Positions 4,348-54,543 of a DNA stretch of 64,000 bases are shown piece after piece (position 1 is the first letter of the stretch; each line of letters starts with the position of its first letter). The stretch lies in UHGV virus genome UHGV-0311442. The stretch is one strand, 5' to 3'. A program made the translations under genes and the position numbers. Under the pieces are notes generated by a model. That model was not told where the DNA came from, ran no database searches, and saw only the letters and a list, made by a program, of their open reading frames with translations. This DNA is from a virus.

Positions 4348-7300
4348 ATGGCTAAAAAAGGTAAAGATGATTTCGATGAAATCGATCTTGATAACATGGA
4401 CGACTGGGACGATTTTGATGAGCCCCCTCGTCAACAAGACCAATCGCGTAACCCGGTCATGGACACATTTCGTGCTGCCCGTAAGTCGGCGTTGTCGACT
4501 ATCTGGCCCGAAAACAAACGTGATCAGGTTATTTTAAAAGGGATGCCTAAACCTGCGGCAGAAGCCTACGAAGGCTATCAAAACGTTAAAGCTGCAGGTC
4601 AAGACATTCTGGCCCATACGAAAGACGAGATTGAAAAGACGTCTCGCGTCGTCAAGATGCAAGCGAGACAGTTAGGTCCAACACTGAAACGGTATTTACC
4701 GGAATCCGTAACACGGAAAATCGACAAGTGGGCACGTAACGATCAAATCGACTATGGGAATTACGATCCTAAACAAGCGATGATGGATCGTGAGCTGGAC
4801 AGCGTGTTCTCAGGCGCACCGCAAACAGCGGACCAGCAACGTGAGGCGCAAGAGGGGATGGTTGAAGACCGCTTGCGCGACACGATTAAGGACATGAAGT
4901 CCGACGCACTGTTCCAGACCGTAATCGGTATTGCAAAAGACGTCAACTTAACGACTAGCCTAAGTCGTGGCGTGTTGTTGAATGTTCAGCGTAAGCAGTT
5001 AGAGCTGCAATATCGGACGCTGTTTGCTTTGCAGGATATTGCGAAACTCAAACAAGACGAGTTTGCACGCAACACCCCGGCATTAGAAGCCATCGTTAAG
5101 AACACGGCACTACCCGACTACGCGAAGGAAGAGTTTTCTGAAATTCGTTGGGCTAATGTAAAACGTAAAGCTGCGGAGTGGATGAACCCCTTACACTACG
5201 CAGATAATTTCATTGGCCAGATTCGCGAAAACGCGAAGAAGAAAATCTCGAACATCTTTAGTGATGGTCGTGGGATTCTAGAACAAGTTCTAGGGATGGC
5301 TCAGGAAGATGACTTTGACATGTCGGACAGCTCATCGTTGTCTCCTGACCGTCGTAACACAAACTCGCGCAATAAAGCGGCAGGTTTTGCAGGTGGTTGG
5401 TTAGCAAAACGTCTCCTACAACCACAGATCGAGCGACTTCAGAACTGGACGCGTGGCGAGCTAGAGAAAAACCCAGAAGTCATGAAACGCCTACAGTTGG
5501 CGAAGTATGGCTTTGGAAATTTGTCGTCTATTTCTAACTCGGCAATAGCGGGAGAAACAAGCGGCCCGTTAGCTGATCTGTTTCGACTAATGCACGATTT
5601 GGGGCTAGTTAACCCGCTACGTCGCGAAACGTTAGCATTAGACGATCGCTCTGCGGAATCTCTTTCTGCTGCGGCGAAGTTCGATCGTAAAGCTTACCTT
5701 AGTATCACAGAAGTTATTCCGACGTTACTGTCCGAGATTAACAAATCTATTCGTCGTGGGTATGGCGAACACCACGATCAGGTTTATGACTTGACCACGC
5801 GTGGTATGGTCGATCGTAAGGTTATTGGCAATCGTGTACGTAAGGCCGTTGCTAATGACGATCAGCGCAAACGTTTACAGACGTACATCAACGACACTGT
5901 CGACTTTATCGATAAAGATAAAACGCTTGATAGGAAAACACGTCAAGCGTTAGCGGACTACATCGAGTCTCGTGCCTCAGAAGGGAAAGCGTTCGATGTA
6001 GGGTCTTTATTGAAAGACCCGATGCACATGTATCGTTACATGAACGCAAACGCTGTGGAAGCGATTCAGGGTGTTTTAGAAGCCCGTTCTGCGGAACTGG
6101 TTGGTGGACACCATGAACTGAGTAACGCGATTTCAAACAAAATCGCCGCTATCCAGTCAACGATTCGCGCACGACAGGACACTGTTGATGCTGCGTCTGT
6201 GATTTACGGCGAGAATGCACTTCGTGATTCCGGTATTTTTAAATACGATGCGAAGAAAGACATTTTCGAGGTCGATAAGGACATTAACGATCCCTATACG
6301 TTATTTAATGACCTGTCGATGGGTAAGACCCGCTCTGGACGTTCGTTAACCCGTGAGCAAGAGATTCAGCGTAAATTGCAAAACGGTTCTGCGCTGGGTG
6401 ATTACTTGCGACGGATGGGTGCAGGCGCAGAGCCGAGCTTTGAAGACAAAGAACTGTCCAATGTACGTGGCGGTGGAAAAGGAGGTCGTGGTCGCGGTTT
6501 AAGCGCACGCCAACTCGCTGCGGTACTTTATGGAGAGAAATCCACTAACTTTGTTGAACTGTTAAGCAGTCGTCCAGACACGAACGCCGGGTTGGAACAG
6601 CAATTCGACCGTTTGATTGATGCTGTACGTAAACAGCCCGAATCTAGCATCGTGCAAGACATCCTCAAACACGTTAAGAACATGGATGAGGAAGGTATTC
6701 TTCTAGCCAGTTTAGGCGGTAGTCGTGATGACGGTGACGAACCTGAAAGTTCGGGTGAATCAGGCCGTAAACGTCGTCGTAAGCGCAAACGTATTGTACT
6801 AGGCGAGACAGGTTTGTTACGTCGCTGGGCTGGGGTGCTTTGGGATACCGGTTCTGGTGTAGGACGGTTTGGTAAGAATCTGTTCCTACGTGGGAAAGAT
6901 CGCCTACAAGCATTAGGTGGTTTTATTCGTGGGAAATTCTCAGGCGGTTCCTCCGAAGGTCCTGGCGTATTTAGCCGACTGAAAGGGTTAGTAACTGGTA
7001 CATTATCGACGGGTTGGAATTCTGCTGTAGCTTTCGGTAAAGGCGTTTTAGGCGTTCGCGACATCTACGATGAACGTGGTAACGTCGTATTACAAGGAAG
7101 TCGTTTAGAAGCTGGGGAATATTACCAGGCTGACCCGAAAACTGAGAAGCTGATTCAACTTAAAACTCTCGACGATATTAAACTGGGACGTGACATCGTC
7201 GACGAAGCGGGTAATTTAATCTTAGCTGCTGCTGATTTGGCTGCCGCAGGTAAACTGCGTTTCTACAAAGGCGGTAAAGTTCAAGCGCTTTTCCAGTACA

Positions 7301-10300
7301 TTTCTGGGAAGGCAGGAACGGCGGTAAACAAAGCTGTGACTTTACCGAAGAAACTTCTGGGTTTCATTTCGCCTAAAGCGGCTTCGTTGTTCGAGAAAGC
7401 ACGCGAGTGGTTAAATGAGGTTCCAGAGGGTGCAGAGAAAACCCGTTTACAAAGCATGATTTCCCGCGTAACGGGAATGCCAGCTCGTCTGTGGAACAAT
7501 GCAAAACGTGGGTTTGAGAAGCTCAAAGAGTTGGCTTCTGATAATCCGTTGACACGTTGGTGGCAGAACCGTAAGGAAGGGGGTTCTGGTGGTGGGTTTA
7601 GTGTGTTCTCATGGTCGAATGGCCGTAAAACTAACCACATCTTAATCCGTATCTACAAACTCCTTAACCGGAGATTGCCAGGTGAACCTGAAGATGACAC
7701 CTGGACAGAACAGATGGAGCGGAATACGGGGGCCAGTTCAGTTAAAGGATTATTCCAACGTGCTAAGGACATACGCGAAGGGTTCCGTGAACATTTTCAA
7801 GGGTTCCGGGATTGGCGTGGTCGGATGCGTGACAGAATGTCCCGTTACCGTAGTGCGGTAGGTGGTCGTCTTTCTCGTTGGGGTGGTGCAGCACGTGATT
7901 GGTTTGACCGTTTCCGTGGTCGTGCAAGCGATATGGTCGATACCTTCCGTGATCCGCGTTACGACATTGGAACACGTTATCGAATGGAGAGTCGTTTAGC
8001 AGGACGCGATGACGACGTTGCTGAGTTTTATCGTCAACACATCTACGCAAGAGGCAAGGTGTCTAAAACACGTATCATCGATGCGGCAAAAGAAGACTTG
8101 GATACCGTAACGGATAGCGCTGGACGTGTGATTAATAAAGGGAAACAGAAAGCCCGTAGCGTTGGGTCGGTTTTACTGGAACGCCTGAACCGAATGGTTA
8201 ATCTTCAGGAAATGTCGTGGTTTAATACCATGCGTGATTCTGCGGAAAAAGCAGGTGCTTCGGATGGTTTGTTAAGAACCATGTTCAGTAAGTTCGGTCA
8301 ACGTAACAAGCCACCTGCCAGTGATGAAAAACGCGATTACTTCCAGTTCTTCCGACGCCGTCGTCGCTCTAAGGAAGAGGAAAAGGCTAAGAAAGAGGCT
8401 GAGAAGAAAGGCGGTAAACGTGGGGTAATGGATTTCCTTAAAGGACTGCCGTTGGTAGGGCCGATTGTGAGTATTTTAGGCACAGTGGGTTCAATCTTAG
8501 GTAAAGTCGCAAAATGGGGAATCTTTAAGCCGGTTGGGTTTGCAGGTAAAGCGTTGTGGAACGTTGGTAAGTTTGCTGTGACCCGTTTGGCTGTTCCTGC
8601 GGTGAGTGCTGTCGCGACGGCAGCATCTGCAGTGGTAACTGCGGTTGGCTGGCCGATTATCGGTTTGGTCGCTGCAGGCGCTGCGCTGTCTTGGTTTGCG
8701 TATAAAACTGCAACCCGTGTGAATGCTCAGTATCTGGATAACATGCGATTGGCACAGTACGGATTTAGAGATCACGATGAGTGGTCTTCCGACGATGGCG
8801 CAAAAGCACGTTATTTAGAAGACAACTTGAAACCGTACATCTCTTATACAGAGAATGGCCAAGCACAGTTGCGTGGTTTGTCCGGTGACGACGTGAAGAA
8901 ACTGGCCGAAGGGTTTGGTACTAACGTAGAAGACAAAGGCGAAATGCTGGCGTTTACTGCGTTTATGTTACAACGTTTTGTGCCGATCTATTTACGTTGG
9001 ATTACGGCACTGAAATCCATGGATAATGATATCGCGTTAGCAGATGTCGGTAATCCTGCGAAAGTGTCGAAAGCGGACATGCTTACCATCTTTAACAAAA
9101 TGAAGATGACAAAAGATGCGCCTGCTTTTAAATCACTGACAGACCCCCGTAAAGTTAACCAAGGCTGGTTCTCTAAAGCGTGGGATTTCGTGACCTTCAC
9201 ACCGGCAGAATTTTTGTCAGGTGAAGAAGTTGTCGAAGCACAAGATCGTGTTTTCCGGTCTATCAACATGCGCCGTGACGATAAGCGTAAGGAAACAACT
9301 GGAGCCGGTGCTGTGCCTGAAGGACATAAAGTTGCTTCTGTGGCAGAATCTTCGCAGGTACTCGCGAAGAACGATACCGAGCGTAACGAAACTGTTGCTA
9401 AAGCTGAGGGTTGGGAAGACGGTACTGAACAGGTTCAAATTCAAGTTGACTGGAGAGCATTACCTGAGAAGAAAGATTTGGACGCGATGGAATCCGTCCG
9501 TTGGAAATCTTACGGTGTGAAATCTGTTAATGAGACAACACGTACCCTCTTTAGGTTGCTTGAGAAAGAAGTGTTGAAAGACACGGATATCAAAAATTGC
9601 ATTTATAAGGGCGATTGGAAGAAAGCAATTTCTGCGATTGCGCCTGATGCAATTGGTGGCCCAAAAGAGGAGCGTTACAAGAACTGGTTCTATAATCGAT
9701 TCTTACCTGTATTCATGACCTACGTTTATGGTGTAAAACGCTACGTACCTCATGCAGATCCGTTGGATTTGAAACTCACAGGGGGTTTCCTCTATGAGCT
9801 GGCACTGATGATGCGTGGTGCTTACAACATGAAAGGGGGTATCCGTCAGTCTGTGTGGGAAATCGCATTTAACCCGTTAGGAGGCGATGCGAATACCGAT
9901 GCAGGTTCAGTGAGGGAAGAATTAGCAACGCTGAAAGAGTTGTCTAAAGAACCCGATCTGGCTGTAAGGAACATGCTCAAAGAAACACCGAGCACACCTA
10001 AGCGTATGACATGGAAATCGCCAGCGACAAACTCCAGTGTCCATCAGACGAATGAAGATAACAAAGAGCGTTATAAGGGAATTAACAGCTATGGCGAAGC
10101 TTCAAACGACGGATACTTACCGAAAGGTGGTCAGTCCTACGGTACGCCAGGTGACTTATCACAAGTTGTTGGCGATATGGGTATAGGGAACTATGCGAAG
10201 TATTCCACTGGACAATCTGGCATCACCCTCGGTGAGTTACAAGACGGTGATTACAAATCGTTAGTGACTAAATACCCAAGGGAAATGCTTGGCAAACCGA

Positions 10301-11514
10301 TGCAGTCAAATACTGAAGCCATCAAGTCATTGATTATTGACGCGGCAAACATGGTGGGTGTTCCACCATCTGTTGCGATTGCAATGGCACAAGCAGAATC
10401 TGGCTTACAGTATGGCAACTATCCTGGCGCATCCTCTGGTAGACCGAGAAGTAATAAGATGTCTGCCGCTGGCCTGTTCCAATTTACCAATGGCACTTGG
10501 AATGGGGTTATGAAGCAGTACGCCCGAAGATACGGTATTCCACAAACCGACCAGTTCGACCCGTGGGCTAACGCAATCTTAGGTGTTAACTTCATTAGAG
10601 ACAACATCAAGACCGCACAAAAGGATCTGGGTGGAATTGCCCCACCTCCGGCAGTAGCGTACCTATACCACTTCTTAGGCCCAGGTGGTGGTGCTGAGTT
10701 CCTTAAAGCCTGGAAAACCAATCCTAACGGGTCGCCCGACAAAGTGAAGTACATCACACCTGCCGTTCTTAACGGTAATGAAGGTGTTTTCTATATCATG
10801 AACGGGAAGAAACGCGTTAGGATGCGTACGATCGGTGAGGTTGTCGAGGAACTGAACCGCCGTATGGGTGCGGTTGGAACCAACGAGATTGCAGCAAATC
10901 CTGCGTCTGCGAAAAACATGACGAAAGGGTTATCACCAGTTCCATCGTCTCCTGCAATTGCTGCTGGCGCAGCTAACGATCCGTCTATTGCTGGTCCGGC
11001 AGATAACCTGCCAGCCGCGAACGAGGCGAATCGTGACTCCGCTTTAGCAGACAAAGGTGCGATGGGCGCTGAAGATATTAAAGCTGCAACGGGTGGTGGT
11101 CCGGCTGTGCCGAGTCCTGGCGGTGACGTCACGCCAAGTGATGCGTCTGTCGTTGTTGAAACGGTGGGTCAAAATGCGCGTGCTGACGGTCTGGGCGAAG
11201 AGGAAGTTGCCAAAGTAAAAGAAGGTGCTAGACAGCAAATGGAGAAATCCGCACGTCCTGCACCAACGGTAACGTCTGATGCACAGACTACACCAACAGT
11301 GAACAGTGGTGATCCGATCAGCGTACAGCAGCTGGCGGTTGCAAAAGAGTCTGCGGGCTATCTGAGAGAGATTGTAACAATTCTTCGTCAGAGACCACAG
11401 GCTATGCAGCCATCCCCAGCGACCTCGGCAGCTTCTGCTCCGGGTTCAGCATCACGTAACATCGCGGTTGAACAACCTGCCCGCCAACTCGACGTTGGTC
11501 GTAAACGGGCGTAA
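4348..11514 (+). CDS. Giant virion/tail-associated protein with a lytic transglycosylase (SLT) domain; phiKZ gp181-like cell-wall-degrading or tape-measure-like protein
   Basis: Track ORF of 2388 aa. SLT motifs AIAMAQAESGLQYG...AAGLFQFTNGTWNGVMKQY...AVAYLYHFLGPGG lie at nt ~10300-10760, with the putative catalytic Glu codon at 10396-10398. A cluster of hydrophobic helices lies at nt ~8440-8710. Polybasic and Arg-rich tracts and an Ala/Pro/Gly-rich C-terminal tail are present. A terminator follows at 11523-11551. Confidence 0.8.
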   Translation: MAKKGKDDFDEIDLDNMDDWDDFDEPPRQQDQSRNPVMDTFRAARKSALSTIWPENKRDQVILKGMPKPAAEAYEGYQNVKAAGQDILAHTKDEIEKTSRVVKMQARQLGPTLKRYLPESVTRKIDKWARNDQIDYGNYDPKQAMMDRELDSVFSGAPQTADQQREAQEGMVEDRLRDTIKDMKSDALFQTVIGIAKDVNLTTSLSRGVLLNVQRKQLELQYRTLFALQDIAKLKQDEFARNTPALEAIVKNTALPDYAKEEFSEIRWANVKRKAAEWMNPLHYADNFIGQIRENAKKKISNIFSDGRGILEQVLGMAQEDDFDMSDSSSLSPDRRNTNSRNKAAGFAGGWLAKRLLQPQIERLQNWTRGELEKNPEVMKRLQLAKYGFGNLSSISNSAIAGETSGPLADLFRLMHDLGLVNPLRRETLALDDRSAESLSAAAKFDRKAYLSITEVIPTLLSEINKSIRRGYGEHHDQVYDLTTRGMVDRKVIGNRVRKAVANDDQRKRLQTYINDTVDFIDKDKTLDRKTRQALADYIESRASEGKAFDVGSLLKDPMHMYRYMNANAVEAIQGVLEARSAELVGGHHELSNAISNKIAAIQSTIRARQDTVDAASVIYGENALRDSGIFKYDAKKDIFEVDKDINDPYTLFNDLSMGKTRSGRSLTREQEIQRKLQNGSALGDYLRRMGAGAEPSFEDKELSNVRGGGKGGRGRGLSARQLAAVLYGEKSTNFVELLSSRPDTNAGLEQQFDRLIDAVRKQPESSIVQDILKHVKNMDEEGILLASLGGSRDDGDEPESSGESGRKRRRKRKRIVLGETGLLRRWAGVLWDTGSGVGRFGKNLFLRGKDRLQALGGFIRGKFSGGSSEGPGVFSRLKGLVTGTLSTGWNSAVAFGKGVLGVRDIYDERGNVVLQGSRLEAGEYYQADPKTEKLIQLKTLDDIKLGRDIVDEAGNLILAAADLAAAGKLRFYKGGKVQALFQYISGKAGTAVNKAVTLPKKLLGFISPKAASLFEKAREWLNEVPEGAEKTRLQSMISRVTGMPARLWNNAKRGFEKLKELASDNPLTRWWQNRKEGGSGGGFSVFSWSNGRKTNHILIRIYKLLNRRLPGEPEDDTWTEQMERNTGASSVKGLFQRAKDIREGFREHFQGFRDWRGRMRDRMSRYRSAVGGRLSRWGGAARDWFDRFRGRASDMVDTFRDPRYDIGTRYRMESRLAGRDDDVAEFYRQHIYARGKVSKTRIIDAAKEDLDTVTDSAGRVINKGKQKARSVGSVLLERLNRMVNLQEMSWFNTMRDSAEKAGASDGLLRTMFSKFGQRNKPPASDEKRDYFQFFRRRRRSKEEEKAKKEAEKKGGKRGVMDFLKGLPLVGPIVSILGTVGSILGKVAKWGIFKPVGFAGKALWNVGKFAVTRLAVPAVSAVATAASAVVTAVGWPIIGLVAAGAALSWFAYKTATRVNAQYLDNMRLAQYGFRDHDEWSSDDGAKARYLEDNLKPYISYTENGQAQLRGLSGDDVKKLAEGFGTNVEDKGEMLAFTAFMLQRFVPIYLRWITALKSMDNDIALADVGNPAKVSKADMLTIFNKMKMTKDAPAFKSLTDPRKVNQGWFSKAWDFVTFTPAEFLSGEEVVEAQDRVFRSINMRRDDKRKETTGAGAVPEGHKVASVAESSQVLAKNDTERNETVAKAEGWEDGTEQVQIQVDWRALPEKKDLDAMESVRWKSYGVKSVNETTRTLFRLLEKEVLKDTDIKNCIYKGDWKKAISAIAPDAIGGPKEERYKNWFYNRFLPVFMTYVYGVKRYVPHADPLDLKLTGGFLYELALMMRGAYNMKGGIRQSVWEIAFNPLGGDANTDAGSVREELATLKELSKEPDLAVRNMLKETPSTPKRMTWKSPATNSSVHQTNEDNKERYKGINSYGEASNDGYLPKGGQSYGTPGDLSQVVGDMGIGNYAKYSTGQSGITLGELQDGDYKSLVTKYPREMLGKPMQSNTEAIKSLIIDAANMVGVPPSVAIAMAQAESGLQYGNYPGASSGRPRSNKMSAAGLFQFTNGTWNGVMKQYARRYGIPQTDQFDPWANAILGVNFIRDNIKTAQKDLGGIAPPPAVAYLYHFLGPGGGAEFLKAWKTNPNGSPDKVKYITPAVLNGNEGVFYIMNGKKRVRMRTIGEVVEELNRRMGAVGTNEIAANPASAKNMTKGLSPVPSSPAIAAGAANDPSIAGPADNLPAANEANRDSALADKGAMGAEDIKAATGGGPAVPSPGGDVTPSDASVVVETVGQNARADGLGEEEVAKVKEGARQQMEKSARPAPTVTSDAQTTPTVNSGDPISVQQLAVAKESAGYLREIVTILRQRPQAMQPSPATSAASAPGSASRNIAVEQPARQLDVGRKRA

Positions 11515-23429: not shown

Positions 23430-23455
23430 TTCTTTTTGAAATTGAGGTAGTAAGA

Positions 23456-32545: not shown

Positions 32546-33205
32546 AATATTTTTAGCGAAAAAAGGATCGACTGTAAACTCCTTCACCTGTGAGTCATAA
32601 CCCGAATGTATTTGATCGCTACTGAGCAAATACTGGTCTAAATCGTGCGGAAGAATCCAAGAATCGCCTTGCTTAAAAATACCATAATCTGCTGTTCCTG
32701 CGGAAAAAATGATTTCCTCTGGAAACGAATAGATGTGGCGTAAGGCAAGATCGGATGGCTTTAACACGATTAATCGAACGGGATGTTGACTGACTGCCTC
32801 TTTAATAAACTGTTCACGATTAAACCAAATTATTTTTTCGGGGTAAGTTTCGAATTCAGCCCATGTCCGCGTGATAACTAATTTGGAAATCTTTCTCAAT
32901 TCTTCAGAATGCTCTGCGTAGCCAATACACTCCTTGCGTACTTCATGATTTTCTACCGATGCTGTGAATTTTTGGAATAGGTGTTGTTGGAAAAAGCCGT
33001 TCTCCGGGATATCACAACCCGCGTTGTATAGTGCAATGATCTCCCACAACAACGAAAGAGAAAACACAAATGCTAACTTTTCCACCACTTCCCAATCTTC
33101 GGAGTAAGGGGCTTTAAAGCCCCAATACTGCCGTGCGTTATACATAAAGTGAGTTTGTAAAAACCGGGGGGCTTTTGACAAGACCTCACTATAAACGATC
33201 AGCAT
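32537..33205 (-). CDS. Hypothetical protein
   Basis: Track ORF of 222 aa. The ATG overlaps the 3' end of the RNase H gene by 7 nt. Confidence 0.6.
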   Translation of the reverse strand: MLIVYSEVLSKAPRFLQTHFMYNARQYWGFKAPYSEDWEVVEKLAFVFSLSLLWEIIALYNAGCDIPENGFFQQHLFQKFTASVENHEVRKECIGYAEHSEELRKISKLVITRTWAEFETYPEKIIWFNREQFIKEAVSQHPVRLIVLKPSDLALRHIYSFPEEIIFSAGTADYGIFKQGDSWILPHDLDQYLLSSDQIHSGYDSQVKEFTVDPFFAKNILR

Positions 33206-40723: not shown

Positions 40724-41233
40724 TTAGAAGAACGGCTGGTTTGGAATGACAGCGTACTCTAAAATGAACATGTGTTCTGGGGCGTCTTCTTTACGCCAGA
40801 CTTTGTGCGTCGTCACAAGTTTTTCCAGAATCGTTAAAAAACTACGCTGGCAGTATGTGTTTTCACCAAGCAGTAGATTTTGAAGTTCTACAGTAGCGTC
40901 CATATACGCCTGTTTAAAGACTAAACTACGATTATACTGTCCGGTAAAATTCCAAAGCAAGACTTTCCCTTCTTCGGTTTCTTTTACCGTTGGCCGTAAA
41001 CCACAAATCCACAACAAGGCAAGGTTGACGTTCCAGTCAAACTCTAAACCTTCTTCTTCGTCATCACCGAATGCTGTGGGTAAAGCATCGTAAAATTCGT
41101 GTTTCTCTGCGAATTCTTCATCTGACTTAATCTCGTCTTCGATGCTGCTTCGGACGATACTGTAAACGTCTTTCGCGGTCAATTGTGCGGCTTTTGTAAT
41201 GCCTTTATACCAATCGGTTACTACGATGCTCAA
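40724..41233 (-). CDS. Hypothetical protein
   Basis: Track ORF of 169 aa with a TTG start 7 nt after GAGGAG. It overlaps the stop of the SLT gene. Confidence 0.55.
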   Translation of the reverse strand: MSIVVTDWYKGITKAAQLTAKDVYSIVRSSIEDEIKSDEEFAEKHEFYDALPTAFGDDEEEGLEFDWNVNLALLWICGLRPTVKETEEGKVLLWNFTGQYNRSLVFKQAYMDATVELQNLLLGENTYCQRSFLTILEKLVTTHKVWRKEDAPEHMFILEYAVIPNQPFF

Positions 41234-41928
41234 AGGGTAACTCCTCTATTGATTGGAAAACTCGTGTTTATCGTATCCCAAATTTTACTAACTTCCGCCA
41301 ATTGAATCTGACGTGGTGTTTTCTTCGCAAACGCAAGCTGACGTGGGGCCGAGCCCACAACAACAGGCACATCGATTTTCGCGCTATAGAACGCGGCGTC
41401 TTTCATAAAGCCTGCCATTTCTCGTTGTGCTGCTCGAGATTTGCTTTTGATTCGCGTGTGAGCGCCACTTTCACCCCAGTGGTAAGCTAACGCAACTTCA
41501 GCCATGGTGGGCTTGCGTTTGAGTCGTTTGGTTAACCCCTTTTCAAGATGTTTAACATACGCGGCAGCCAGCAAAACAGCATTACGCGGATTATACAAAT
41601 CGGCGTTCTGACTAAGACCTAATTCTTTTCCATAAAGCCTTAGCAGATTACGCTTGGTACTTGGAAGCATCTGTACCAGGCTGTGTGCTCGTGAGCTTTT
41701 GTTGTAAGCCTTGGGATCAAAACGCGATTCACGATAAATCAGCGTAATCATCAGCTTAGGATCAACGCCTTGCTTTCGAGAGATTTCCACAATTAACGGG
41801 CTGACTTTTTCGAACCGATGTTGGATTTGTGTAAACTCACGCTGATGCTTAGATTGCGGCGTTGATGTTGACGCCTGTGCGTTAAACGCGAAAAGTGTTA
41901 CCAGTAAAAGAAAGAAGATACGAAACAT
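41230..41928 (-). CDS. Secreted lytic transglycosylase (SLT domain); candidate signal-peptide endolysin
   Basis: The track ORF starts at 41955. The ATG at 41928 after TGGAG gives MFRIFFLLLVTLFAFNAQA/ST, a Sec-type signal. SLT motifs: LIYRESRFDPKAYNKSSRAHSLVQMLPST, LYNPRNAVLLAAAYVKHL, ALAYHWGESG. Confidence 0.75.
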   Translation of the reverse strand: MFRIFFLLLVTLFAFNAQASTSTPQSKHQREFTQIQHRFEKVSPLIVEISRKQGVDPKLMITLIYRESRFDPKAYNKSSRAHSLVQMLPSTKRNLLRLYGKELGLSQNADLYNPRNAVLLAAAYVKHLEKGLTKRLKRKPTMAEVALAYHWGESGAHTRIKSKSRAAQREMAGFMKDAAFYSAKIDVPVVVGSAPRQLAFAKKTPRQIQLAEVSKIWDTINTSFPINRGVTL

Positions 41929-42010
41929 TTTGTTTCTCCAGTTGGATTTATACATTTCCGTATTCCGTAAGACGAAATGACGGCGCGGACAGCTAATACT
42001 CCTTTGTTGT

Positions 42011-42035
42011 GTGCCCTAATGATAATATCTATTTA
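42011..42035 (-). promoter_or_regulatory. Promoter-like motif, class B (minus orientation: TAAATAGATATTATCATTAGGGCAC)
   Basis: Same TAGATATTATC core as 32521-32545, again beginning with the TAG stop of the upstream gene. It lies upstream of the SLT gene. Confidence 0.4.
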
Positions 42036-42526
42036 AAAGAGTTTGGAATTAATGACTCTGCTTCTCGGTACAGCTTATCGGGTAAGTATAACGTGTAGTG
42101 TTGTCTCCTCGGTTCAAGTTTTTTGTAAAGCCACAAAAAGATTTCTTGTCTTTCCCAGGAATCTAACCACCCATTTGCCATCCCCAGTGGAGGGATAGCA
42201 ACGCTGGTATCCAGTTCCTCAACACAATCTGCTAATGCGGTAATGCCCGCAGTAACATAAGAAACCTGGGACTTTAAACGCCAATGTGTTTTCGTTGGGA
42301 GCAAGATGCACTTTTCATCAGGGTAAACGTAAACGCTTCCAATCTTAATTTCGTCTTCGCGACACCGCTTACGGTAATCTTGATAAAGGTTGGGGTAGCG
42401 TTCACGGCACGCCAGTGCAATACCGCGACCCATCGCTCCTACGCAGTTAATGGTAACGACTTTATAGTCTTCGGGCGCATTAAAAAGATCGTTACCAATT
42501 TCAGATTCTTTACGTACCGTTAACAT
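42029..42526 (-). CDS. Macrodomain protein, DarG/TARG1-like class (ADP-ribose hydrolase-like)
   Basis: The track ORF starts at a TTG at 42589. The ATG at 42526 (MLTVRKE...) is preferred but uncertain. VVTINCVGAMGRGIALACRERYPNLYQDYRKRC...LLPTKTHWRLKS...VAIPPLGMANGWLDSW matches by eye the DarG-type pattern NTVGVMGKGIALQFK..FP..Y..Y...C...NFPTKxHWRxxS...SxAxPxLGCGxGGLxW. Confidence 0.7.
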   Translation of the reverse strand: MLTVRKESEIGNDLFNAPEDYKVVTINCVGAMGRGIALACRERYPNLYQDYRKRCREDEIKIGSVYVYPDEKCILLPTKTHWRLKSQVSYVTAGITALADCVEELDTSVAIPPLGMANGWLDSWERQEIFLWLYKKLEPRRQHYTLYLPDKLYREAESLIPNSFK

Positions 42527-47381: not shown

Positions 47382-47401
47382 CTGGTCTTTCCTTTTAGAT
47401 C

Positions 47402-47429
47402 AAAAAAAGAAGCCCCGAGTAAACGGGGC
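47402..47429 (-). terminator. Rho-independent terminator (minus strand)
   Basis: Stem gccccg/cggggc. The minus strand continues ttcttttttt. Confidence 0.7.
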
Positions 47430-47437
47430 CGGGCTAA

Positions 47438-47914
47438 TTACAGCCCTAAGTGCGTGAGTGATAAAATAGGTTGTGTTTCACCTTTAATCGTCGCGAAGGA
47501 ACGATACATTTCTGCGTTACTTGAAAAAACTTCGTTAGCAACGATACATTCACCCGTCTCTAAAGAAAGGAGATAAATGTAGTCGCTCCATACGCTTTGT
47601 ACCAACACCCACTCAAGTGCGGTATCATTTTCGCGTGTTGTTCGCAGGTGGTGAAAGTAAGGACGGATTGCATCAACTGCCGCATTAAAACGACGGTGAT
47701 AAATTCGGGTTAAATCAAAGGTCCAGATTGTTTCCAGGTCGACTGGATGTAGTGTGCGCACCGTTTCGATAATTGTCGACTGATCATTAAGGCGCGAGGC
47801 TTCGGCGATACGCAGCAGTTTCCAGGCCACCGTTAAGTTGTGGCGAATTTGTTCAGGTTTAGCCGACAGGTCATGATGAAATTGCGCAGCTTGGTAAACG
47901 TTAGATAATTGCAT
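47438..47914 (-). CDS. Hypothetical protein
   Basis: Track ORF of 158 aa with an ATG after CCTAAAGGAGTATTAAA. Confidence 0.6.
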   Translation of the reverse strand: MQLSNVYQAAQFHHDLSAKPEQIRHNLTVAWKLLRIAEASRLNDQSTIIETVRTLHPVDLETIWTFDLTRIYHRRFNAAVDAIRPYFHHLRTTRENDTALEWVLVQSVWSDYIYLLSLETGECIVANEVFSSNAEMYRSFATIKGETQPILSLTHLGL

Positions 47915-47943
47915 TTTAATACTCCTTTAGGTAAACATGTCGT

Positions 47944-47970
47944 AAAAAGGACCCCGGACGTACCGGGGTC
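47944..47970 (-). terminator. Rho-independent terminator (minus strand)
   Basis: Stem gaccccgg/ccggggtc with loop acgta. The minus strand continues cttttt. Confidence 0.7.
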
Positions 47971-47980
47971 AAGACTACAC

Positions 47981-48370
47981 TCAATGATCTAATTCAATAG
48001 CACCAGCCATCTTGCCCCGTTCTTCGATAACAATCAGATAACGGTCGCGAGATTTGCTTTTAGCGAGAGTTAAGACAACAGTAGGGTCGCATGTTTTCGT
48101 GGTGATAGGAAGAACCTCTCTTTCGACGGAATCGAGCAGAAAGTAATAACCTGCGGGACACATTGTGCCACCGTCAGCTTTTACCAGAATATAGCGCCCG
48201 TCTGCGCCGACTTCTTGGCAGATTGTTTCACCGACTTCGCAAACTTCAAACCCCGGAGGATTGTACTGATAATCGGTATTGTTGTTTGGGGTTAGCAGTA
48301 AATCGTTAACTTGAGTAGATGCTGCTACACTCAGGGAGAAGAAGAATGCTAAAACGCAGACGAGACGCAT
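47981..48370 (-). CDS. Secreted small Cys-containing protein; paralog of 48381..48791
   Basis: Track ORF of 129 aa with signal-like MRLVCVLAFFFSLSVAAS. There are four Cys. CEVGETICQ...RYILVKADGGTMC corresponds to CTEIDGLYCQ...RYVFIVEQGGAWC in the neighbour. Confidence 0.6.
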   Translation of the reverse strand: MRLVCVLAFFFSLSVAASTQVNDLLLTPNNNTDYQYNPPGFEVCEVGETICQEVGADGRYILVKADGGTMCPAGYYFLLDSVEREVLPITTKTCDPTVVLTLAKSKSRDRYLIVIEERGKMAGAIELDH

Positions 48371-48380
48371 GAGTTACTCC

Positions 48381-48791
48381 TTAAATTTTAAGTTTATCCA
48401 TAGCTACAACGATAGGTTTTTCCGAAGTGTCTAATATCCCTACCATTGGCACACCATCTACGACTTCGAAGAATGGTTTGTTATTACCAGAGCATAGACG
48501 TTTGTCGTTGTATTCGAGACGTTGGGCCTTCCACGTTTCGAGGTTGAGTACAGACATTGGGCTGTCGTAGCACCAGGCACCACCTTGCTCAACGATGAAT
48601 ACGTATCTGCTACCTTTGTATTTAAACAGACTCTTCGCCTGACAGTACAACCCGTCAATTTCCGTACAATAGAAATCATCGGTGCTATTGACGTATTTAA
48701 TATTGTCTGGCAACTGAATCGTCTTTGCTGTAGCGTTGACAGAGAACAGAACAGCCATTGCAATGAGAAGAGTGTTGATGATAGTTTTCAT
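48381..48791 (-). CDS. Secreted small Cys-containing protein; paralog of 47981..48370
   Basis: Track ORF of 136 aa with signal-like MKTIINTLLIAMAVLFSVNATA/KT. It shares the four-Cys pattern with the neighbour. Confidence 0.6.
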   Translation of the reverse strand: MKTIINTLLIAMAVLFSVNATAKTIQLPDNIKYVNSTDDFYCTEIDGLYCQAKSLFKYKGSRYVFIVEQGGAWCYDSPMSVLNLETWKAQRLEYNDKRLCSGNNKPFFEVVDGVPMVGILDTSEKPIVVAMDKLKI

Positions 48792-48802
48792 GATAAAAGT
48801 CC

Positions 48803-49288
48803 TTAGTATTTAGATTGTTCTACGTATTTCTTAACCAGGTAAGCGAATTCAGCAACACCGATATCACCGAACCAAATCAGGTAACCGGGGTCGATGTTGT
48901 AGTAATAGCCGACGAGTTTCTTGGTGTGTGGGTTGTATAGCGTTACGATGTATTCCCAACCACAAGCGTTAGCTTTACAACCGCCGCTTTCAATCCAGAT
49001 TTTGTTGTTGATATTTACCGGATACATGTTACCGCCAGGGCCATCCATGTAACCTTTAGAGCCGAACATACCATCCAGTCCCACAGGGTCTAGTGTTTTA
49101 TCAACAACGGCTTTAAACGACTTATCGGTATCGTACAAGTCGTTGATGTTTGGGCACGCATTTGGCTGACCTTCCCAAGCGTTTCCATCGCAGGTAAGCA
49201 ATTCGTCTACGGAGGCCGCATCTACAGTTGGCGTGGCACCGATAAACAAGAAAACCAGAAAGAACATCAGTGTATGTAAACGTTTCAT
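48803..49288 (-). CDS. Secreted protein, Ivy-like (inhibitor of lysozyme / lytic transglycosylase family) candidate
   Basis: Track ORF of 161 aa with signal MKRLHTLMFFLVFLFIGATPTVDA/AS. IWIESGGCKANACGWEYIVTLYNPHTKKLVGYYYNID...LIWFGDIG aligns by eye with E. coli Ivy YQVMSACKPHDCGSQRIAVMWSEKSNQMTGLFSTID...LTWLNVND. The loop His is replaced (CKANAC; nt ~48959-48985). Confidence 0.4.
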   Translation of the reverse strand: MKRLHTLMFFLVFLFIGATPTVDAASVDELLTCDGNAWEGQPNACPNINDLYDTDKSFKAVVDKTLDPVGLDGMFGSKGYMDGPGGNMYPVNINNKIWIESGGCKANACGWEYIVTLYNPHTKKLVGYYYNIDPGYLIWFGDIGVAEFAYLVKKYVEQSKY

Positions 49289-49306
49289 TGTAACTACTCC
49301 TTTAGA

Positions 49307-49699
49307 TTATTCGGCAGGACGATTTAAGGTAACGCGTCCGATTAATTCGGCGTTGTGAAAGAAGTCCACAGCGGTATAATTACCAACGGATAATGGGTGA
49401 ATACTAACTGACATTACTTTCGGTTGTTCGCAAGCAATATCGGTTAGACGTTGGTAGACTTGCGCACGGGTGTCAGCAATGAGTAACCCCGTACACGCTT
49501 CACCACGCACTAAACGATAAACTTGCAGTTTACCGAAACTGCGCATTAACGTAGGCGTCTCATCCGGGTTGATAATCGGTGAGTCAGGAGCCGGTTCGTA
49601 ATAGCGGACATCCGAATCACCGAAAGCATAAGTGCCAGTAATTCCGACCGCACAGAAAATAATGATAGTATAAAGTATAGTTCTGATATTCATTTTCAC
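49307..49699 (-). CDS. Secreted or membrane-anchored small protein
   Basis: Track ORF of 130 aa (GTG at 49699; alternative ATG at 49693). The N-terminus IRTILYTIIIFCAVGITGTYA/FG is hydrophobic and signal-like. Confidence 0.55.
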   Translation of the reverse strand: MKMNIRTILYTIIIFCAVGITGTYAFGDSDVRYYEPAPDSPIINPDETPTLMRSFGKLQVYRLVRGEACTGLLIADTRAQVYQRLTDIACEQPKVMSVSIHPLSVGNYTAVDFFHNAELIGRVTLNRPAE

Positions 49700-49721
49700 G
49701 CACTCTAAAAAAGATTAATAG

Positions 49722-50183
49722 TTATTTGTTAGGACGGGTGTGCCCACAGTTTTGGAAGAAAGTTTCAGATAAACGATCGCCTTCTACGGTAAAGTTAGCG
49801 GCATCGTTACCATTGATACTCACACTGAAAGTTTTGGCATTACCGATAGCATTAACGAAAGCAACCCAAGCGTGTTCTGCCTTGTCACTACCGTCCACGG
49901 TAGGGATGTTATAGGTTTTGCCGTTTACGACAATATCCATCGTGTTATCTTCAGCGTTAGTTGCACCTACGGGTTCCCCGTAATACCAAACCATGCGACC
50001 GTAAAATTTGCGATTCGCAGTTTCAGTGTCACAGTTGATAGACAGTCCGTTTCCGGCGGTGTCTTCAATTTCGTAAACTGCCTGGCCAGGGTTTTGTATT
50101 TGTTCCCAGCTGTTGATAGCGGCGTGTGCAGTATTGAAACCGATTACGAAAAGGGCGATTAAAAAGGAAGTGAAGATTTTCAT
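49722..50183 (-). CDS. Secreted small protein
   Basis: Track ORF of 153 aa with signal MKIFTSFLIALFVIGFNTAHA/AI and an ATG after ATAAAGGAGC. It is the first gene after promoter-like motif 50231-50257. Confidence 0.6.
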   Translation of the reverse strand: MKIFTSFLIALFVIGFNTAHAAINSWEQIQNPGQAVYEIEDTAGNGLSINCDTETANRKFYGRMVWYYGEPVGATNAEDNTMDIVVNGKTYNIPTVDGSDKAEHAWVAFVNAIGNAKTFSVSINGNDAANFTVEGDRLSETFFQNCGHTRPNK

Positions 50184-50230
50184 TGTTTTGCTCCTTTATG
50201 GCGTTAATGTATAAAGAGTTAATCGTAACT

Positions 50231-50257
50231 CTCACCTAAGTAATATATATCTGAAAT
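50231..50257 (-). promoter_or_regulatory. Promoter-like motif, class A (minus orientation: ATTTCAGATATATATTACTTAGGTGAG)
   Basis: Near-identical to 54517-54543. It lies directly downstream (minus sense) of terminator 50276-50308 and ~50 nt upstream of the ATG at 50183. The upstream flank is AT-rich. Confidence 0.5.
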
Positions 50258-50275
50258 TATTTTTAATATTAACGA

Positions 50276-50308
50276 ACAAAAAATAAAAGGTGGGGGTAAA
50301 CCCCCACC
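50276..50308 (-). terminator. Rho-independent terminator (minus strand)
   Basis: Stem ggtggggg/cccccacc with loop taaa. The minus strand continues ttttatttttt. Confidence 0.8.
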
Positions 50309-50312
50309 GATG

Positions 50313-50891
50313 TTATACATCGAACCGGTACTGCCGGGAGTTAATGAGGAACTCGGTATTCAGCTCAATCCATTCGAGTAAATCACCCAACGGTAATCGG
50401 TTTGGGTTTTCTAACTCAATAGACGCTACCGGATAAGAGTTTACTAATTCCGTAATTGCCTCAATACCCTCTTGCGTTCCGTCGTCTTCTAAGGTGATTG
50501 TAAACGGCATATCGGTACGATCCGCATTAGGATTGTACAAACTGACTTTCGTTGCTTGGACAAACGCAGTCAGGTCGTCACGTATAATGCGTGTATCAGG
50601 CGCTAGAACTACCCAGAGATGTTGTCCTGGCTGGAGTTTACGTTTTGCGTAGTTTAAGAACGGGTTAGCCGGTAAGCTTTCCAAACCACTGCAAATGTTC
50701 CGTAAATGAATCCCTCGTGGGTCTTTATAGTCCACGCTGAAGATTCCTACCGGTTCCTTCGCTGCCTGTTTTATCAGAAAGACCAATACCGTGTCCGCTC
50801 TTTCTGGTAAGGAAAGCTCTATTCCCTCAAGCTCCCCATCGACGAGGTTTTCCAACCAAACGTCTTTTCGCATTTCTATTAATCGGTACAC
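50313..50891 (-). CDS. Hypothetical protein
   Basis: Track ORF of 192 aa with a GTG start after GTGAGGTGG. It lacks the C-terminal GW...QLLF module of the four upstream genes. Confidence 0.55.
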   Translation of the reverse strand: MYRLIEMRKDVWLENLVDGELEGIELSLPERADTVLVFLIKQAAKEPVGIFSVDYKDPRGIHLRNICSGLESLPANPFLNYAKRKLQPGQHLWVVLAPDTRIIRDDLTAFVQATKVSLYNPNADRTDMPFTITLEDDGTQEGIEAITELVNSYPVASIELENPNRLPLGDLLEWIELNTEFLINSRQYRFDV

Positions 50892-50903
50892 GGTACCACC
50901 TCA

Positions 50904-51677
50904 CTATTGATTAAGTTTTACATCGGCAATAAACAGCAATTGTTTACCATGTTGCTGCACTTCTTTCCAACCTAGTTTCATAGCAGCGTCAACAACATCT
51001 AACATGCTGTAACGGGACATCAACGCGGTTGATTTTGTTCCTGACATTAAATAAAGCGGCTCATTAGGGCAACGGTCTCGAGCATCAGGAAGTTCTCGAA
51101 TAACCGCTGAGCCTTCGGGTGCGGTAACAACGTGAATCACGGTAAATGGTCTCTTATGCGTTAAATAGATACGAAATCCAACGTGTTCAGATTCATGAAA
51201 GATTTTCTTCACAACCACATCTTTTAGTGTTGTCTGAACATCATCCCCAGGTAATATCGTGGATTCACGAGAAACGAAACAACGACTATTTTCAATCGTG
51301 GAGAAATAATTACGTATCGGCAAACTGGCGTTATGATCGCGCAGTTTTTTGCTCAATAGATCGAAGTTCAGTTCTTTAACTTTTTCTAACCACTCTTTGG
51401 CTTGTTGAATGTAATAACTACCAACAGCGCGATAAGTTAATACCTTACCTGTGCTCACTTTCCAAAGCTTGATGCTTAGTGAATTTGGCTTATAGCGACG
51501 ATACTCACCCTGCGTATGGTTGATGCGCTCGTAACGCTCTACATCATCAACTGGTGCAGATTCGACCGATTGTAATTGCAGCGTACGATCTAATCTATCG
51601 GCAAATAGTAGTGATGATAGCGGGCCTTCGATCATATACGGTTCGGTTTTAAAGATATCGTCTAAATGGACTTTCAT
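50904..51677 (-). CDS. Member of the tandem paralog family (C-terminal GW...QLLF module)
   Basis: Track ORF of 257 aa. The N-terminus MKVHLDDIFKTE corresponds to MKELLDDIFTNT of 53511..54248. The C-terminus is LGWKEVQQHGKQLLFIADV. Confidence 0.6.
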   Translation of the reverse strand: MKVHLDDIFKTEPYMIEGPLSSLLFADRLDRTLQLQSVESAPVDDVERYERINHTQGEYRRYKPNSLSIKLWKVSTGKVLTYRAVGSYYIQQAKEWLEKVKELNFDLLSKKLRDHNASLPIRNYFSTIENSRCFVSRESTILPGDDVQTTLKDVVVKKIFHESEHVGFRIYLTHKRPFTVIHVVTAPEGSAVIRELPDARDRCPNEPLYLMSGTKSTALMSRYSMLDVVDAAMKLGWKEVQQHGKQLLFIADVKLNQ

Positions 51678-52926: not shown

Positions 52927-53481
52927 TTAAGCAGGGTAAGCTAAAAACAACAACTGCTGGCCGAGTTTACGTACAGTATACCAACCGTGGGCTTTAGCGA
53001 CCGCGATCAACGTTTCCCAGTCATCAACATCACACTGCTCATTCCGAAGTCTTGTAAAGAGTGCCTCGGCTTCGCTTTGGTTTAATAACTTACCTGGGTT
53101 GTCTGGGGTGCAGTCAGTAGGGGTTGGAAAGAAAGTATACTGACGCGCTAGGAGAAAATCGACCAGATACTTGGTATTTTCTTTATAAACCAGCGTGGAA
53201 GACTTTCCTTCGTGGAAGAAGCTGCCTGTTTTCCAAGCGCTATCCCCCAGTAAGCTCTGAAGGTAATCTGTAAAGCCCGTTCTGAAAGGGATATGGTTTT
53301 TACGTGTGATGTTACGACGCAGCGGGGTTTCCTCTACAGCTTGTACACCCACCCCTACTATCATCGCACCTGGCTGAATAATGCTATTGGTCAGTACGGT
53401 ATAAGGACGGACAAAGAAATGTTCGCCTACGCCTTTTTCAAGGGTTTGGATAATTTCATTTTTCAGTTCAGTTTGAAACAT
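52927..53481 (-). CDS. Member of the tandem paralog family
   Basis: Track ORF of 184 aa. The C-terminus is HGWYTVRKLGQQLLFLAYPA. Confidence 0.6.
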   Translation of the reverse strand: MFQTELKNEIIQTLEKGVGEHFFVRPYTVLTNSIIQPGAMIVGVGVQAVEETPLRRNITRKNHIPFRTGFTDYLQSLLGDSAWKTGSFFHEGKSSTLVYKENTKYLVDFLLARQYTFFPTPTDCTPDNPGKLLNQSEAEALFTRLRNEQCDVDDWETLIAVAKAHGWYTVRKLGQQLLFLAYPA

Positions 53482-53510: not shown

Positions 53511-54248
53511 TTACGCGGTTTTAATTAACAGCAGATAGTCCTTCGTAATCTCAGCACAACCCCACCCTCTCATCGCGGCGATTTTACGAAGATCAATTTT
53601 CTCGTGATATCTCAATAAGGGATCGCCTGAGTTAATCTCAACCAGGTGTGTGGCTTTAGAAATCGTTTCTACATCAGGGATCTGTTTTGCTAAGTCGGAT
53701 GCAATTAACTCGATGATACGGTATCCCTCTAACACAGAAACATAGATGCGCAAACCATATAGCGTGCCTTCGTCTTCTAATGGACAAAGATCGATGCCGG
53801 GTCCAAGCAGTGATAACTCGACGTTATCGGGAAGGTTTTCTGCATTTCGGAGTAACCCTATCCCATTTCTAAACAGAGGGAAGTAAGAGAATAGTGGTGG
53901 TAAAGCCCAACCGTTCCCAATAAGCACATCAGCGATACTCGTAGGTGTGTTCGCAAGAAGACGAATGTGGTCAGCCACAACTTCAAGTTCGGCGTCACTG
54001 ATCAACTTATAGATTAACATGACACTGGTTTCGGTATTAATAACAAAGAAGACGCGGTTGGCGTAACTGCCTATCACGTATTCGTCAATCATACAGTCGA
54101 TAACGTCACTGTCTGGATAATCTTCAGGTTTAATTGTTCCAGCATCGATTAACTTAGCAGGTTGCGATTGTTTTATTAGTTCGTTAACCACCGTAGAAGA
54201 AAGTTCTAAACTGGTGTTGGTAAAGATATCGTCTAATAATTCTTTCAT
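53511..54248 (-). CDS. Member of the tandem paralog family (most divergent C-terminus)
   Basis: Track ORF of 245 aa. The C-terminus is RGWGCAEITKDYLLLIKTA, and the N-terminus matches 50904..51677. Confidence 0.6.
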   Translation of the reverse strand: MKELLDDIFTNTSLELSSTVVNELIKQSQPAKLIDAGTIKPEDYPDSDVIDCMIDEYVIGSYANRVFFVINTETSVMLIYKLISDAELEVVADHIRLLANTPTSIADVLIGNGWALPPLFSYFPLFRNGIGLLRNAENLPDNVELSLLGPGIDLCPLEDEGTLYGLRIYVSVLEGYRIIELIASDLAKQIPDVETISKATHLVEINSGDPLLRYHEKIDLRKIAAMRGWGCAEITKDYLLLIKTA

Positions 54249-54516: not shown

Positions 54517-54543
54517 TTCACTTAAGTAAAATATATCTGAAAT
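54517..54543 (-). promoter_or_regulatory. Promoter-like motif, class A (minus orientation: ATTTCAGATATATTTTACTTAAGTGAA)
   Basis: Near-identical to 50231-50257. It points toward the paralog array but lies ~270 nt upstream of its first ATG (54248). Confidence 0.45.

Follow-up and report, generated by a model that had tools for sequence, protein, structure and literature searches.

A 64,000-nucleotide (nt) stretch of the virus genome UHGV-0311442, referred to below as the window, carries on its minus strand a predicted unit of five genes for small secreted proteins, the third of which is the subject of this analysis. This gene is an intact open reading frame (ORF) of 161 amino acids (aa) with an ATG start at 48803..49288, exactly where the original prediction, an earlier annotation of the window, had placed a signal peptide-bearing relative of the periplasmic lysozyme inhibitor Ivy. 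The ORF starts 18 nt past the stop codon of the upstream gene, and its ATG is preceded at a distance of 8 nt by a strong Shine-Dalgarno site, AAGGAG. By inspection, the N-terminus (MKRLHTLMFFLVFLFIGATPTVDA/AS, with the slash marking the predicted cleavage site) displays a basic n-region, a hydrophobic core, and V-D-A at positions -3 to -1, and it lacks a lipobox. Residues M1 to L14 and A24 to A25 are conserved across the clade formed with its closest relatives, and residues 1–24 show a low predicted local distance difference test (pLDDT) score in both structural models described below. The protein is thus predicted to be exported by the Sec route and to be soluble in the periplasm.

Homology of the phage protein to the Ivy superfamily is virtually certain. 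Single-sequence searches failed to reveal it, and profile and structure methods alone were successful. Neither the query nor its close E. coli homologs match any Pfam model even at E <= 10, the curated Ivy cut-off of 21 bits not being reached, and direct single-sequence searches of PHROG and of PDB (phmmer) returned no Ivy entry for the query. Pairwise BLASTP against E. coli Ivy, a comparison sequence confirmed against PDB 1GPQ/1XS0 (E of 5e-85), gives one alignment of 52 residues (28 bits, pairwise E of 2e-5) in which the Cys-x4-Cys-Gly loops are in register. A HMMER profile of 12 close homologs ranks Ivy second and third among 177,635 PDB sequences in the same register, at an E value of only 1.2. 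In an hhalign comparison, the query family matches 21 enterobacterial Ivy sequences with 91% probability (E of 1.1e-6) over 83 columns, which begin at the N-terminal helix, include the loop, and end with the L(I/T)W strand, and which keep the Cys loops, the next Gly, and the 'ID' turn in register; the single query sequence still yields 85%. The four neighboring secreted ORFs, used as negative controls, score 0.2–0.9% against Ivy. The match is therefore not a chance event, and these neighbors can be discarded as further Ivy-like proteins. The alignment to E. coli Ivy originally drawn by eye was reproduced exactly by BLASTP, HMMER, and hhalign.

The gap between the query and the annotated family is bridged by intermediate sequences. 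An exhaustive HMMER search of 1.84 billion representative proteins with the family profile identified 56 relatives, and 26 of the 33 relatives aligned (alignment A4) match Pfam Ivy (PF08816) by themselves. The ten closest bridging proteins (P0145–P0164), reached at E values from 9e-22 to 2e-9, all exceed the 21-bit Pfam cut-off (22–37.7 bits), and several of them, from Pectobacterium, Salmonella salamae, and Chromobacteriaceae, bear the NCBI label 'Ivy family c-type lysozyme inhibitor'. The sole match of the query among 18,950 NCBIfam models is the Ivy equivalog NF007443, at 18.6 bits (E of 1.3e-3). As the equivalog cut-off of 180 bits is not reached, the protein is a remote relative of Ivy and not an ortholog. 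The proposed Ivy relationship is hence borne out by the profile search that had been suggested as a check, by transitive Pfam membership, and by the NCBIfam match. Domain fusions were observed among the superfamily relatives examined (P0145, P0146, P0187, P0182, and P0191): P0145, P0146, and P0187 share a C-terminal domain, with a weak DUF7908 match in P0146. A caspase-like Peptidase_C14 domain is present in one relative, and a DnaJ domain together with zinc ribbons in another. Some Salmonella members of the superfamily are labeled 'Prophage protein'.

Structure prediction leads to the same family. A first AlphaFold2 model based on a shallow alignment (model 1, pLDDT 66) retrieved Ivy chains as its top eight Foldseek matches in PDB (probability 0.97–1.0, target-normalized template modeling (TM) score of about 0.64), and the first match other than Ivy was noise (E of 1.9). 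Model 2, computed from the 33-sequence alignment, reached a pLDDT of 89.1 and a predicted TM score of 0.79. It comprises helices at residues 27–32, 48–54, 56–69, and 145–159 and strands at 87–93, 96–104, 112–119, 124–131, and 136–140, with the Cys loop placed between strands 96–104 and 112–119 (beta2/beta3). The modeled five-stranded sheet flanked by helices is the Ivy fold as seen in 1GPQ, 1XS0, and 1UUZ, in line with the fold that the original prediction had implied; the combination that was to refute that prediction, a missing HMM relationship and a deviating fold, is not what was observed. A query of the viral structures in BFVD with the moderate-confidence model 1 returned no Ivy-fold match.

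The loop had been read as CKANAC in place of CKPHDC of Ivy, and nt 48962..48979 of the minus strand indeed read TGT AAA GCT AAC GCT TGT. Within the clade, C104, K105, C109, G110, and W111 are invariant and positions 106–108 are variable, so that the disulfide-bounded six-residue loop followed by Gly, recognized early on, is a conserved feature; C104 and C109 are at least 90% conserved in the superfamily alignment. The same degree of conservation applies in alignment A4 to C33 and C45, which are absent from E. coli Ivy. Disulfide bonds are predicted for both pairs, C104–C109 and C33–C45. In the wider relatives, the loop follows the pattern C-[EKQ]-x-H-[ND]-C, the His being present in 22 of 28 sequences, and all canonical Ivy sequences (alignment A3) read CKPH[D/N]C. 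The clade alleles are CKANAC (the phage, P0006, and P0010), CKAHAC (P0002, P0004, and P0008), CKSNAC (a related phage and others), CKSDAC, and CKANTC. The absence of the Ivy His therefore holds for the phage allele and does not extend to the whole clade, since E. coli chromosomal alleles read CKAHAC. With N, H, or D found at this position, loss of the His is derived and not universal in the clade. Inside a clade of about 65% identity, the tip thus varies (A/S, N/H/D, and A/T) and the C-K-x-x-x-C-G-W frame is fixed, a pattern that would be expected of a contact loop determining specificity.

Read along the minus strand, the unit consists of a terminator, a promoter motif, five ORFs with signal-peptide-like N-termini, and a second terminator (Table 1). 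The promoter motif was recognized with a 24-nt consensus assembled from promoters of OBP, N1M2, 201phi2-1, and phiKZ (Table 2 of PMC7058600). Sites with at most three mismatches occur five times in the window and were not found in any of 100 shuffles. The perfect match sits 50 nt upstream of the five-gene unit, and within the region 47400-51000 nucleotide similarity to intergenic DNA of Seoulviruses is confined to this stretch. Promoters of this AT-rich class serve the virion RNA polymerase of phiKZ and 201phi2-1 in the transcription of early genes (PMC11512511), and by analogy the five-gene unit is predicted to be expressed early.

Table 1. Coordinates of the features considered in this analysis, given as positions in the window
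Feature	Position	Strand	Basis
Ivy-superfamily protein precursor (coding sequence)	48803..49288	-	
Putative signal peptide, aa 1-24, MKRLHTLMFFLVFLFIGATPTVDA/A, Sec/signal peptidase I type	49217..49288	-	sequence inspection
Putative inhibitory loop C104-K-A-N-A-C109, aligned to Ivy CKPHDC	48962..48979	-	sequence; register by BLASTP and hhalign
Second conserved Cys pair C33...C45, N-terminal region, predicted extra disulfide	49154..49192	-	33-sequence alignment A4
Intrinsic terminator upstream of the unit, GGTGGGGG-TTTA-CCCCCACC plus T-run	50289..50308	-	
Promoter-like site TTTCAGATATATATTACTTAGGTG	50233..50256	-	0 mismatches to extended phiKZ/OBP/201phi2-1-type AT-rich consensus
Gene 1: 153-aa secreted protein, phrog_3429, YfjT homolog	49722..50183	-	BLASTP
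Gene 2: 130-aa secreted protein, phrog_9424, jumbo-phage family	49307..49699	-	
Gene 4: 136-aa secreted protein, phrog_8968	48381..48791	-	
Gene 5: 129-aa secreted protein, phrog_5248, weak paralog of gene 4	47981..48370	-	
Intrinsic terminator closing the five-gene unit	47950..47970	-	
Promoter-like sites, each upstream of a minus-strand gene	23407-23430, 32523-32546, 42015-42038, 50233-50256, 54519-54542	all -	
Candidate target 1: 2388-aa tail protein, C-terminal SLT domain at aa 1995-2093 (nt 10330-10626)	4348..11514	+	Pfam SLT
Candidate target 2: small SLT protein, Sec-type signal peptide MFRIFFLLLVTLFAFNAQA/S	41230..41955	-	Pfam SLT, E of 1e-14

As to the neighbors, gene 1 is homologous to YfjT of E. 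coli K-12 (b2637, encoded on the CP4-57 island; BLASTP E of 2e-15, 27% identity over 135 aa) and is therefore, together with the Ivy-like gene, the second gene of the unit with relatives in CP4-type islands. YfjT, for which we know of no function, was also considered as a named K-12 homolog of the Ivy-like gene and rejected as unrelated (E of 2.5). The family of gene 2 is present in 53 phage records. In the Seoulvirus SPFM17, the secreted-protein array is kept and the Ivy slot is filled by an unrelated 163-aa ORF, which hhalign probabilities of 0.15–1.6% exclude as a highly diverged Ivy. Genes 4 and 5 and this slot protein (3389-3880 of the extracted Seoulvirus stretch) look like weak paralogs, judged by PHROG cross-matches, BLASTP E values of about 0.01–0.02, and a common motif of the type 'GG..C...Y(F/Y)(L/Y)L(L/V)D', which also shows faint similarity to the K-12 lipoprotein YfjS (E of 8e-4).

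The window derives from a jumbo phage that encodes a multisubunit RNA polymerase as well as virion proteins, UvsX, and ThyA; the beta subunit of its polymerase is 85.8% identical to that of SPN3US-type Seoulviruses. A relative syntenic with the window is NZ_CP173450, which measures 221.9 kb and is recorded as a circular 'plasmid' from an E. coli isolate of human urinary origin; NZ_CP173450.1 is in reality a Seoulvirus-related jumbo-phage genome. Several other contigs of 221–225 kb in E. coli and Salmonella assemblies harbor the same Ivy-like allele, which suggests carriage of, or contamination by, this jumbo-phage group. No member of the query clade was found among GenBank phage records (tblastn, E <= 1). 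Compared with a median protein identity of 85% between the window and this relative, the Ivy-like protein is 66% identical and ranks ninth lowest of 59 genes. It thus belongs to the variable accessory fraction, and its rank rules out a unique divergence hotspot. With a non-synonymous rate (dN) of 0.29 and a ratio to the synonymous rate (dN/dS) of 0.20, there is no evidence for gene-wide positive selection on the Ivy-like gene. A mosaic boundary coincides with the gene: dS amounts to 0.2–0.6 upstream and to 1.2–2.6 from the Ivy-like gene downstream, and is saturated over a five-gene block. The most divergent genes relative to NZ_CP173450 are 52927-53481, 53511-54248, and 464-943 (47–50% protein identity), the first two of which sit behind a promoter-like site; the window ORF 30692-31216 lacks a counterpart in the compared stretches of the relative.

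The clade is not confined to phages. Of the 5,426 complete E. coli genomes searched, 2,333 (~40%) contain it, 1,930 of these with at least 80% coverage, almost always on the chromosome and in up to four copies per genome. At the two loci examined (IAI39 and FDAARGOS_1267), the Ivy-like gene lies inside CP4-type islands, flanked on one side by DUF932, antirestriction, YeeS, and YeeU/CbtA genes and on the other by a patatin/RdcB/dynamin module. The island ORF is intact and encodes 160 aa despite being flagged as a pseudogene by the Prokaryotic Genome Annotation Pipeline (PGAP). The flag ('pseudogene, missing N-terminus') is attached to the gene both in the phage relative and in chromosomal islands, and the flagged copies (2735-3235 in the stretch of the relative and 11991-12479 in both island stretches) are intact ORFs of 160–161 aa with their own Met and putative signal peptide. 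It probably originates from longer reference models (223–227 aa) with in-frame readthrough from the upstream ORF. Directly upstream of the island gene, at a short spacing like that in the phage, lies a decayed copy of gene 2, which is interrupted by two in-frame stop codons in IAI39 and by a frameshift in FDAARGOS_1267. Because the decayed neighbor belongs to a jumbo-phage family, we infer that a two-gene fragment comprising the Ivy-like gene and its upstream neighbor moved from phage to E. coli island, where the Ivy-like gene alone was retained. Its survival as the sole intact gene fits reuse as an anti-phage factor.

A phenotype in phage infection has been reported for one bacterial gene. 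The PHAGEPACK preprint describes Hypo_04657 of E. coli O121 as Ivy-like, with CKANTC in place of CKPHDC, and CRISPR interference (CRISPRi) knockdown of this gene improves T7 plating (bioRxiv 10.1101/2024.04.20.590424). Among the relatives found here, CKANTC occurs only in P0011, P0012, P0015, and P0137, which are 58–61% identical to the query; Hypo_04657 apparently belongs to the same clade, to which it was matched via the loop motif and the description in the paper only. No phage homolog of Hypo_04657 is reported in that preprint, which was also the only hit for 'Ivy-like' together with 'phage' in the literature searched. The phage protein is thus a diverged member of a known family. Its context is new, namely a jumbo-phage accessory operon and mobile islands, and for the bacterial copies there is partial prior art.

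Which enzyme might such a protein inhibit? The original prediction had pointed to the two SLT enzymes of the phage (4348..11514 and 41230..41928), and both domains are real by Pfam. The 2388-aa protein belongs to phrog_3201, category 'tail', and resembles in its architecture phiKZ gp181, a cell-puncturing virion lysin (PMC5380687). The small SLT protein is predicted to be periplasmic and would need no holin for its export; its gene is preceded by a promoter-like site with three mismatches (42015-42038). Relative to NZ_CP173450, the N-terminal 1,000 residues of the 2388-aa protein are 80–97% identical and its C-terminal third, at 63–71%, is the most divergent part. Its SLT domain is 64% identical to that of the relative, close to the 66% of the Ivy-like protein, and this similarity would fit co-variation of the two; the corresponding value for the small SLT catalytic domain is 88%.

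That the protein inhibits some muramidase or lytic transglycosylase (LT) is probable. By analogy with Ivy, the CKANAC loop, projecting between strands 2 and 3, would plug the active-site cleft of an enzyme that cuts glycan strands. Because both polar residues of the Ivy loop (His and Asp/Asn) are replaced, an LT would be favored over a vertebrate C-type lysozyme as the target. Early in infection, the periplasm would then be loaded with an inhibitor of wall-cutting enzymes carried by virions, much as the early periplasmic inhibitor Spackle of bacteriophage T4 acts on the tail lysozyme gp5 (PMC7677548). The enzymes blocked may include the SLT tail protein resembling gp181 that sibling or related phages carry and, for example, the virion lytic transglycosylase gp16 of T7 (PMC5380687), so that phages arriving later would fail to breach the wall or to cause lysis from without. 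For the copies on bacterial islands, T7 gp16 would be a candidate target. The support for these targets is circumstantial: the small SLT protein shares the predicted compartment, the large one is of the tail class and gp181-like, and knockdown of a clade member improves T7 plating. Virion-borne phage enzymes may be the main target, with a likelihood that falls somewhat short of even, and the complete Spackle-like explanation, the most specific statement made here, is advanced with the same tentativeness. Rather doubtful is the longer history according to which an Ivy-fold inhibitor of an early jumbo-phage operon was retargeted from animal lysozyme to virion LTs and then captured by E. coli islands as a widespread anti-phage defense with allele-specific tips.

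Several observations weigh against a Spackle-like inhibitor of virion enzymes. The His central to lysozyme inhibition by Ivy is missing, and the loop could be non-inhibitory. The earlier statement that Ivy homologs have been reported to inhibit LTs is correct, an LT being inhibited according to Clarke 2010, as cited in PMC10139938 and PMC3660660. Yet E. coli Ivy itself inhibits LTs only weakly in vitro, and a direct interaction between Ivy and MltA/B was not detected (PMC10139938), so that LT inhibition should not be taken for granted. The divergence of the Ivy-like gene is unexceptional for this genome pair and its dN/dS indicates overall purifying selection, and the co-divergence of SLT domain and Ivy-like protein comes from a single genome pair and a generally mosaic region. 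The assignment of an early promoter rests on motif analogy, and the bare phiKZ 8-mer TATATTAC, tried as a mark of early promoters, is not enriched (1 found vs 1.9 expected), the 24-nt consensus alone being significant. The CRISPRi phenotype in O121 comes from a preprint and is possibly polar, and the main T7 barrier of that strain is surface polysaccharide (bioRxiv 10.1101/2024.04.20.590424); moreover, Hypo_04657 was tied to the clade only by loop motif and description, not by sequence.

The phage might instead employ the protein against its own exported small SLT enzyme, as an antidote or timer of wall remodeling or lysis. In favor of this, the signal peptide of the small SLT protein looks cleavable and would bring both proteins into one compartment, its gene is preceded by a promoter-like site of the same class as that of the five-gene unit (with three mismatches), and the gene for an independent phage Ivy, that of PHB10, immediately follows a lysis cassette that includes a GH24 endolysin. 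Control of its own enzyme is nevertheless unlikely to be the function, as the copies on E. coli islands have no SLT enzyme accompanying them, the catalytic domain of the small SLT protein has remained 88% conserved whereas the Ivy-like proteins are only 66% identical, a distance of 7 kb separates the two genes, which belong to different units, and Seoulviruses carry homologs of neighboring genes without the Ivy-like gene.

Comparably unlikely is an Ivy fold without enzyme inhibition, in which the protein would serve, together with the other four secreted proteins, in periplasmic binding or as a scaffold for an envelope protein, a receptor, or a DNA-entry factor. Replacement of the key residues that bind the catalytic site would agree with such a role, as would the location in an array of five uncharacterized secreted proteins, among which one resembles YfjT and only the query resembles Ivy. 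The unrelated secreted protein in the Seoulvirus slot suggests interchangeable accessory functions, and fusions to unrelated domains (caspase-like, DnaJ) occur in some relatives of the superfamily. Yet the C-K-x3-C-G frame of the disulfide loop is strictly conserved, and we know of no function of an Ivy-type loop other than insertion into an active site. The sole phenotype reported for the clade concerns phage infection and is equally compatible with enzyme inhibition.

Less probable still is inhibition of host LTs (Slt70 and the Mlt enzymes), which would stabilize the sacculus in a long infection after wall synthesis declines. The Ivy family has been proposed to regulate LTs, and Ivyp1 and Ivyp2 of P. 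aeruginosa inhibit MltB in vitro (Clarke 2010, cited in PMC10139938); Ivy is strongly induced under LT stress (PMC10139938), and the predicted early expression of the phage gene would fit. However, E. coli Ivy inhibits MltA/MltB only partially even at molar excess, and deletion of ivy is without phenotype under LT overexpression (PMC10139938). Moreover, host LTs would leave unexplained both the anti-T7 knockdown phenotype of the chromosomal homolog and the variability of the loop tip, given that the host enzymes confronting the alleles are conserved and the same for all of them. Inhibition of animal C-type lysozyme in the classical manner, with the gene carried as an accessory to the benefit of gut or urinary E. 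coli, is highly improbable, for despite Ivy-superfamily membership, carriage by animal-associated E. coli, and the His kept in some chromosomal alleles (CKAHAC), the phage allele has neither the His nor the Asp of CKPHDC, scores 18.6 bits against the 180-bit equivalog cut-off, would duplicate ivy and mliC already present in E. coli (PMC10139938), and would gain a virulent-type jumbo phage little from host protection in a single infection cycle.

If the protein does inhibit virion-borne LTs, the Ivy scaffold would take part in phage–phage and phage–host conflict, a role beyond defense against animal lysozyme. The physiological relevance of Ivy against animal lysozyme has long been debated, the inhibitor being periplasmic. 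A testable function would become available for a gene that is annotated as 'hypothetical', and often flagged as a pseudogene, in about 2,300 of the 5,426 complete E. coli genomes. This gene would represent a defense acting at the step of cell-wall penetration, with a bearing on host range in phage therapy, as well as a source of natural protein inhibitors of LTs, which are targets for drug potentiation. Should this not be true, what remains is a clean case of remote homology overlooked by standard annotation.

Among known systems, Ivy itself (E. coli YkfE/Ivy, 1GPQ/1XS0; P. aeruginosa Ivy, 1UUZ/4PS6; PF08816; NF007443) shares with the query its topology, a clamped six-residue loop between beta2 and beta3 followed by Gly, the register of the 'ID' turn and of 'L(T/I)W', a signal-peptide-like N-terminus, and a similar size. 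The two differ in that identity is only 14–23% and the query lacks a direct Pfam match, in the replacement of both His and Asp in the loop (CKANAC vs CKPHDC), and in the extra N-terminal Cys pair C33/C45, the longer N-terminal region, and the invariant Trp after the loop Gly of the query. The query is encoded on a jumbo phage and its relatives on mobile islands, whereas Ivy is encoded at the ivy locus. An unannotated protein of Escherichia phage PHB10 (MK524177, QBJ00744.1), the sole match of its kind in 50,697 phage records, is likewise a phage-encoded member of the Ivy family with a signal peptide. Unlike the query, it is canonical (Pfam 71 bits, 37.5% identity to E. coli Ivy, and a His-containing loop, CKPHSC) and resides in a 57-kb phage (3450-3863 of the extracted stretch); it constitutes an independent acquisition. 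In Gram-negative bacteria, lysozymes are also countered by MliC/PliC, PliG, and PliI, small proteins that are secreted or lipid-anchored and place a loop in the active site of muramidases (PMC2267010). Their structures are absent from the matches of the PDB fold search, in which Ivy alone rose above background; no direct sequence comparison with them was made.

Hypo_04657 of E. coli O121 resembles the query in that its Ivy fold was assigned from AlphaFold (bioRxiv 10.1101/2024.04.20.590424), and differs in being chromosomal or island-borne and in being annotated with an extra hydrophobic or helical extension. As its target, the PHAGEPACK authors proposed T7 lysozyme (bioRxiv 10.1101/2024.04.20.590424). 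This enzyme, an amidase, acts from the cytoplasm; the periplasm-exposed gp16 transglycosylase appears more plausible. The likeness to Spackle (gp61.3) of T4 concerns the proposed use only, that of a small, early exported inhibitor which leads to superinfection exclusion (PMC7677548). Neither homology nor a common fold with Spackle is evident, the matches of the PDB fold search containing Ivy and no Spackle structure. Spackle binds around the cleft of its target and acts allosterically (PMC7677548), whereas Ivy-type inhibition proceeds by loop insertion; its target is a lysozyme, whereas that proposed for the query is an SLT domain. If it does act on virion LTs, the Ivy-like protein would provide a second, structurally unrelated answer to the problem solved by Spackle in T4.

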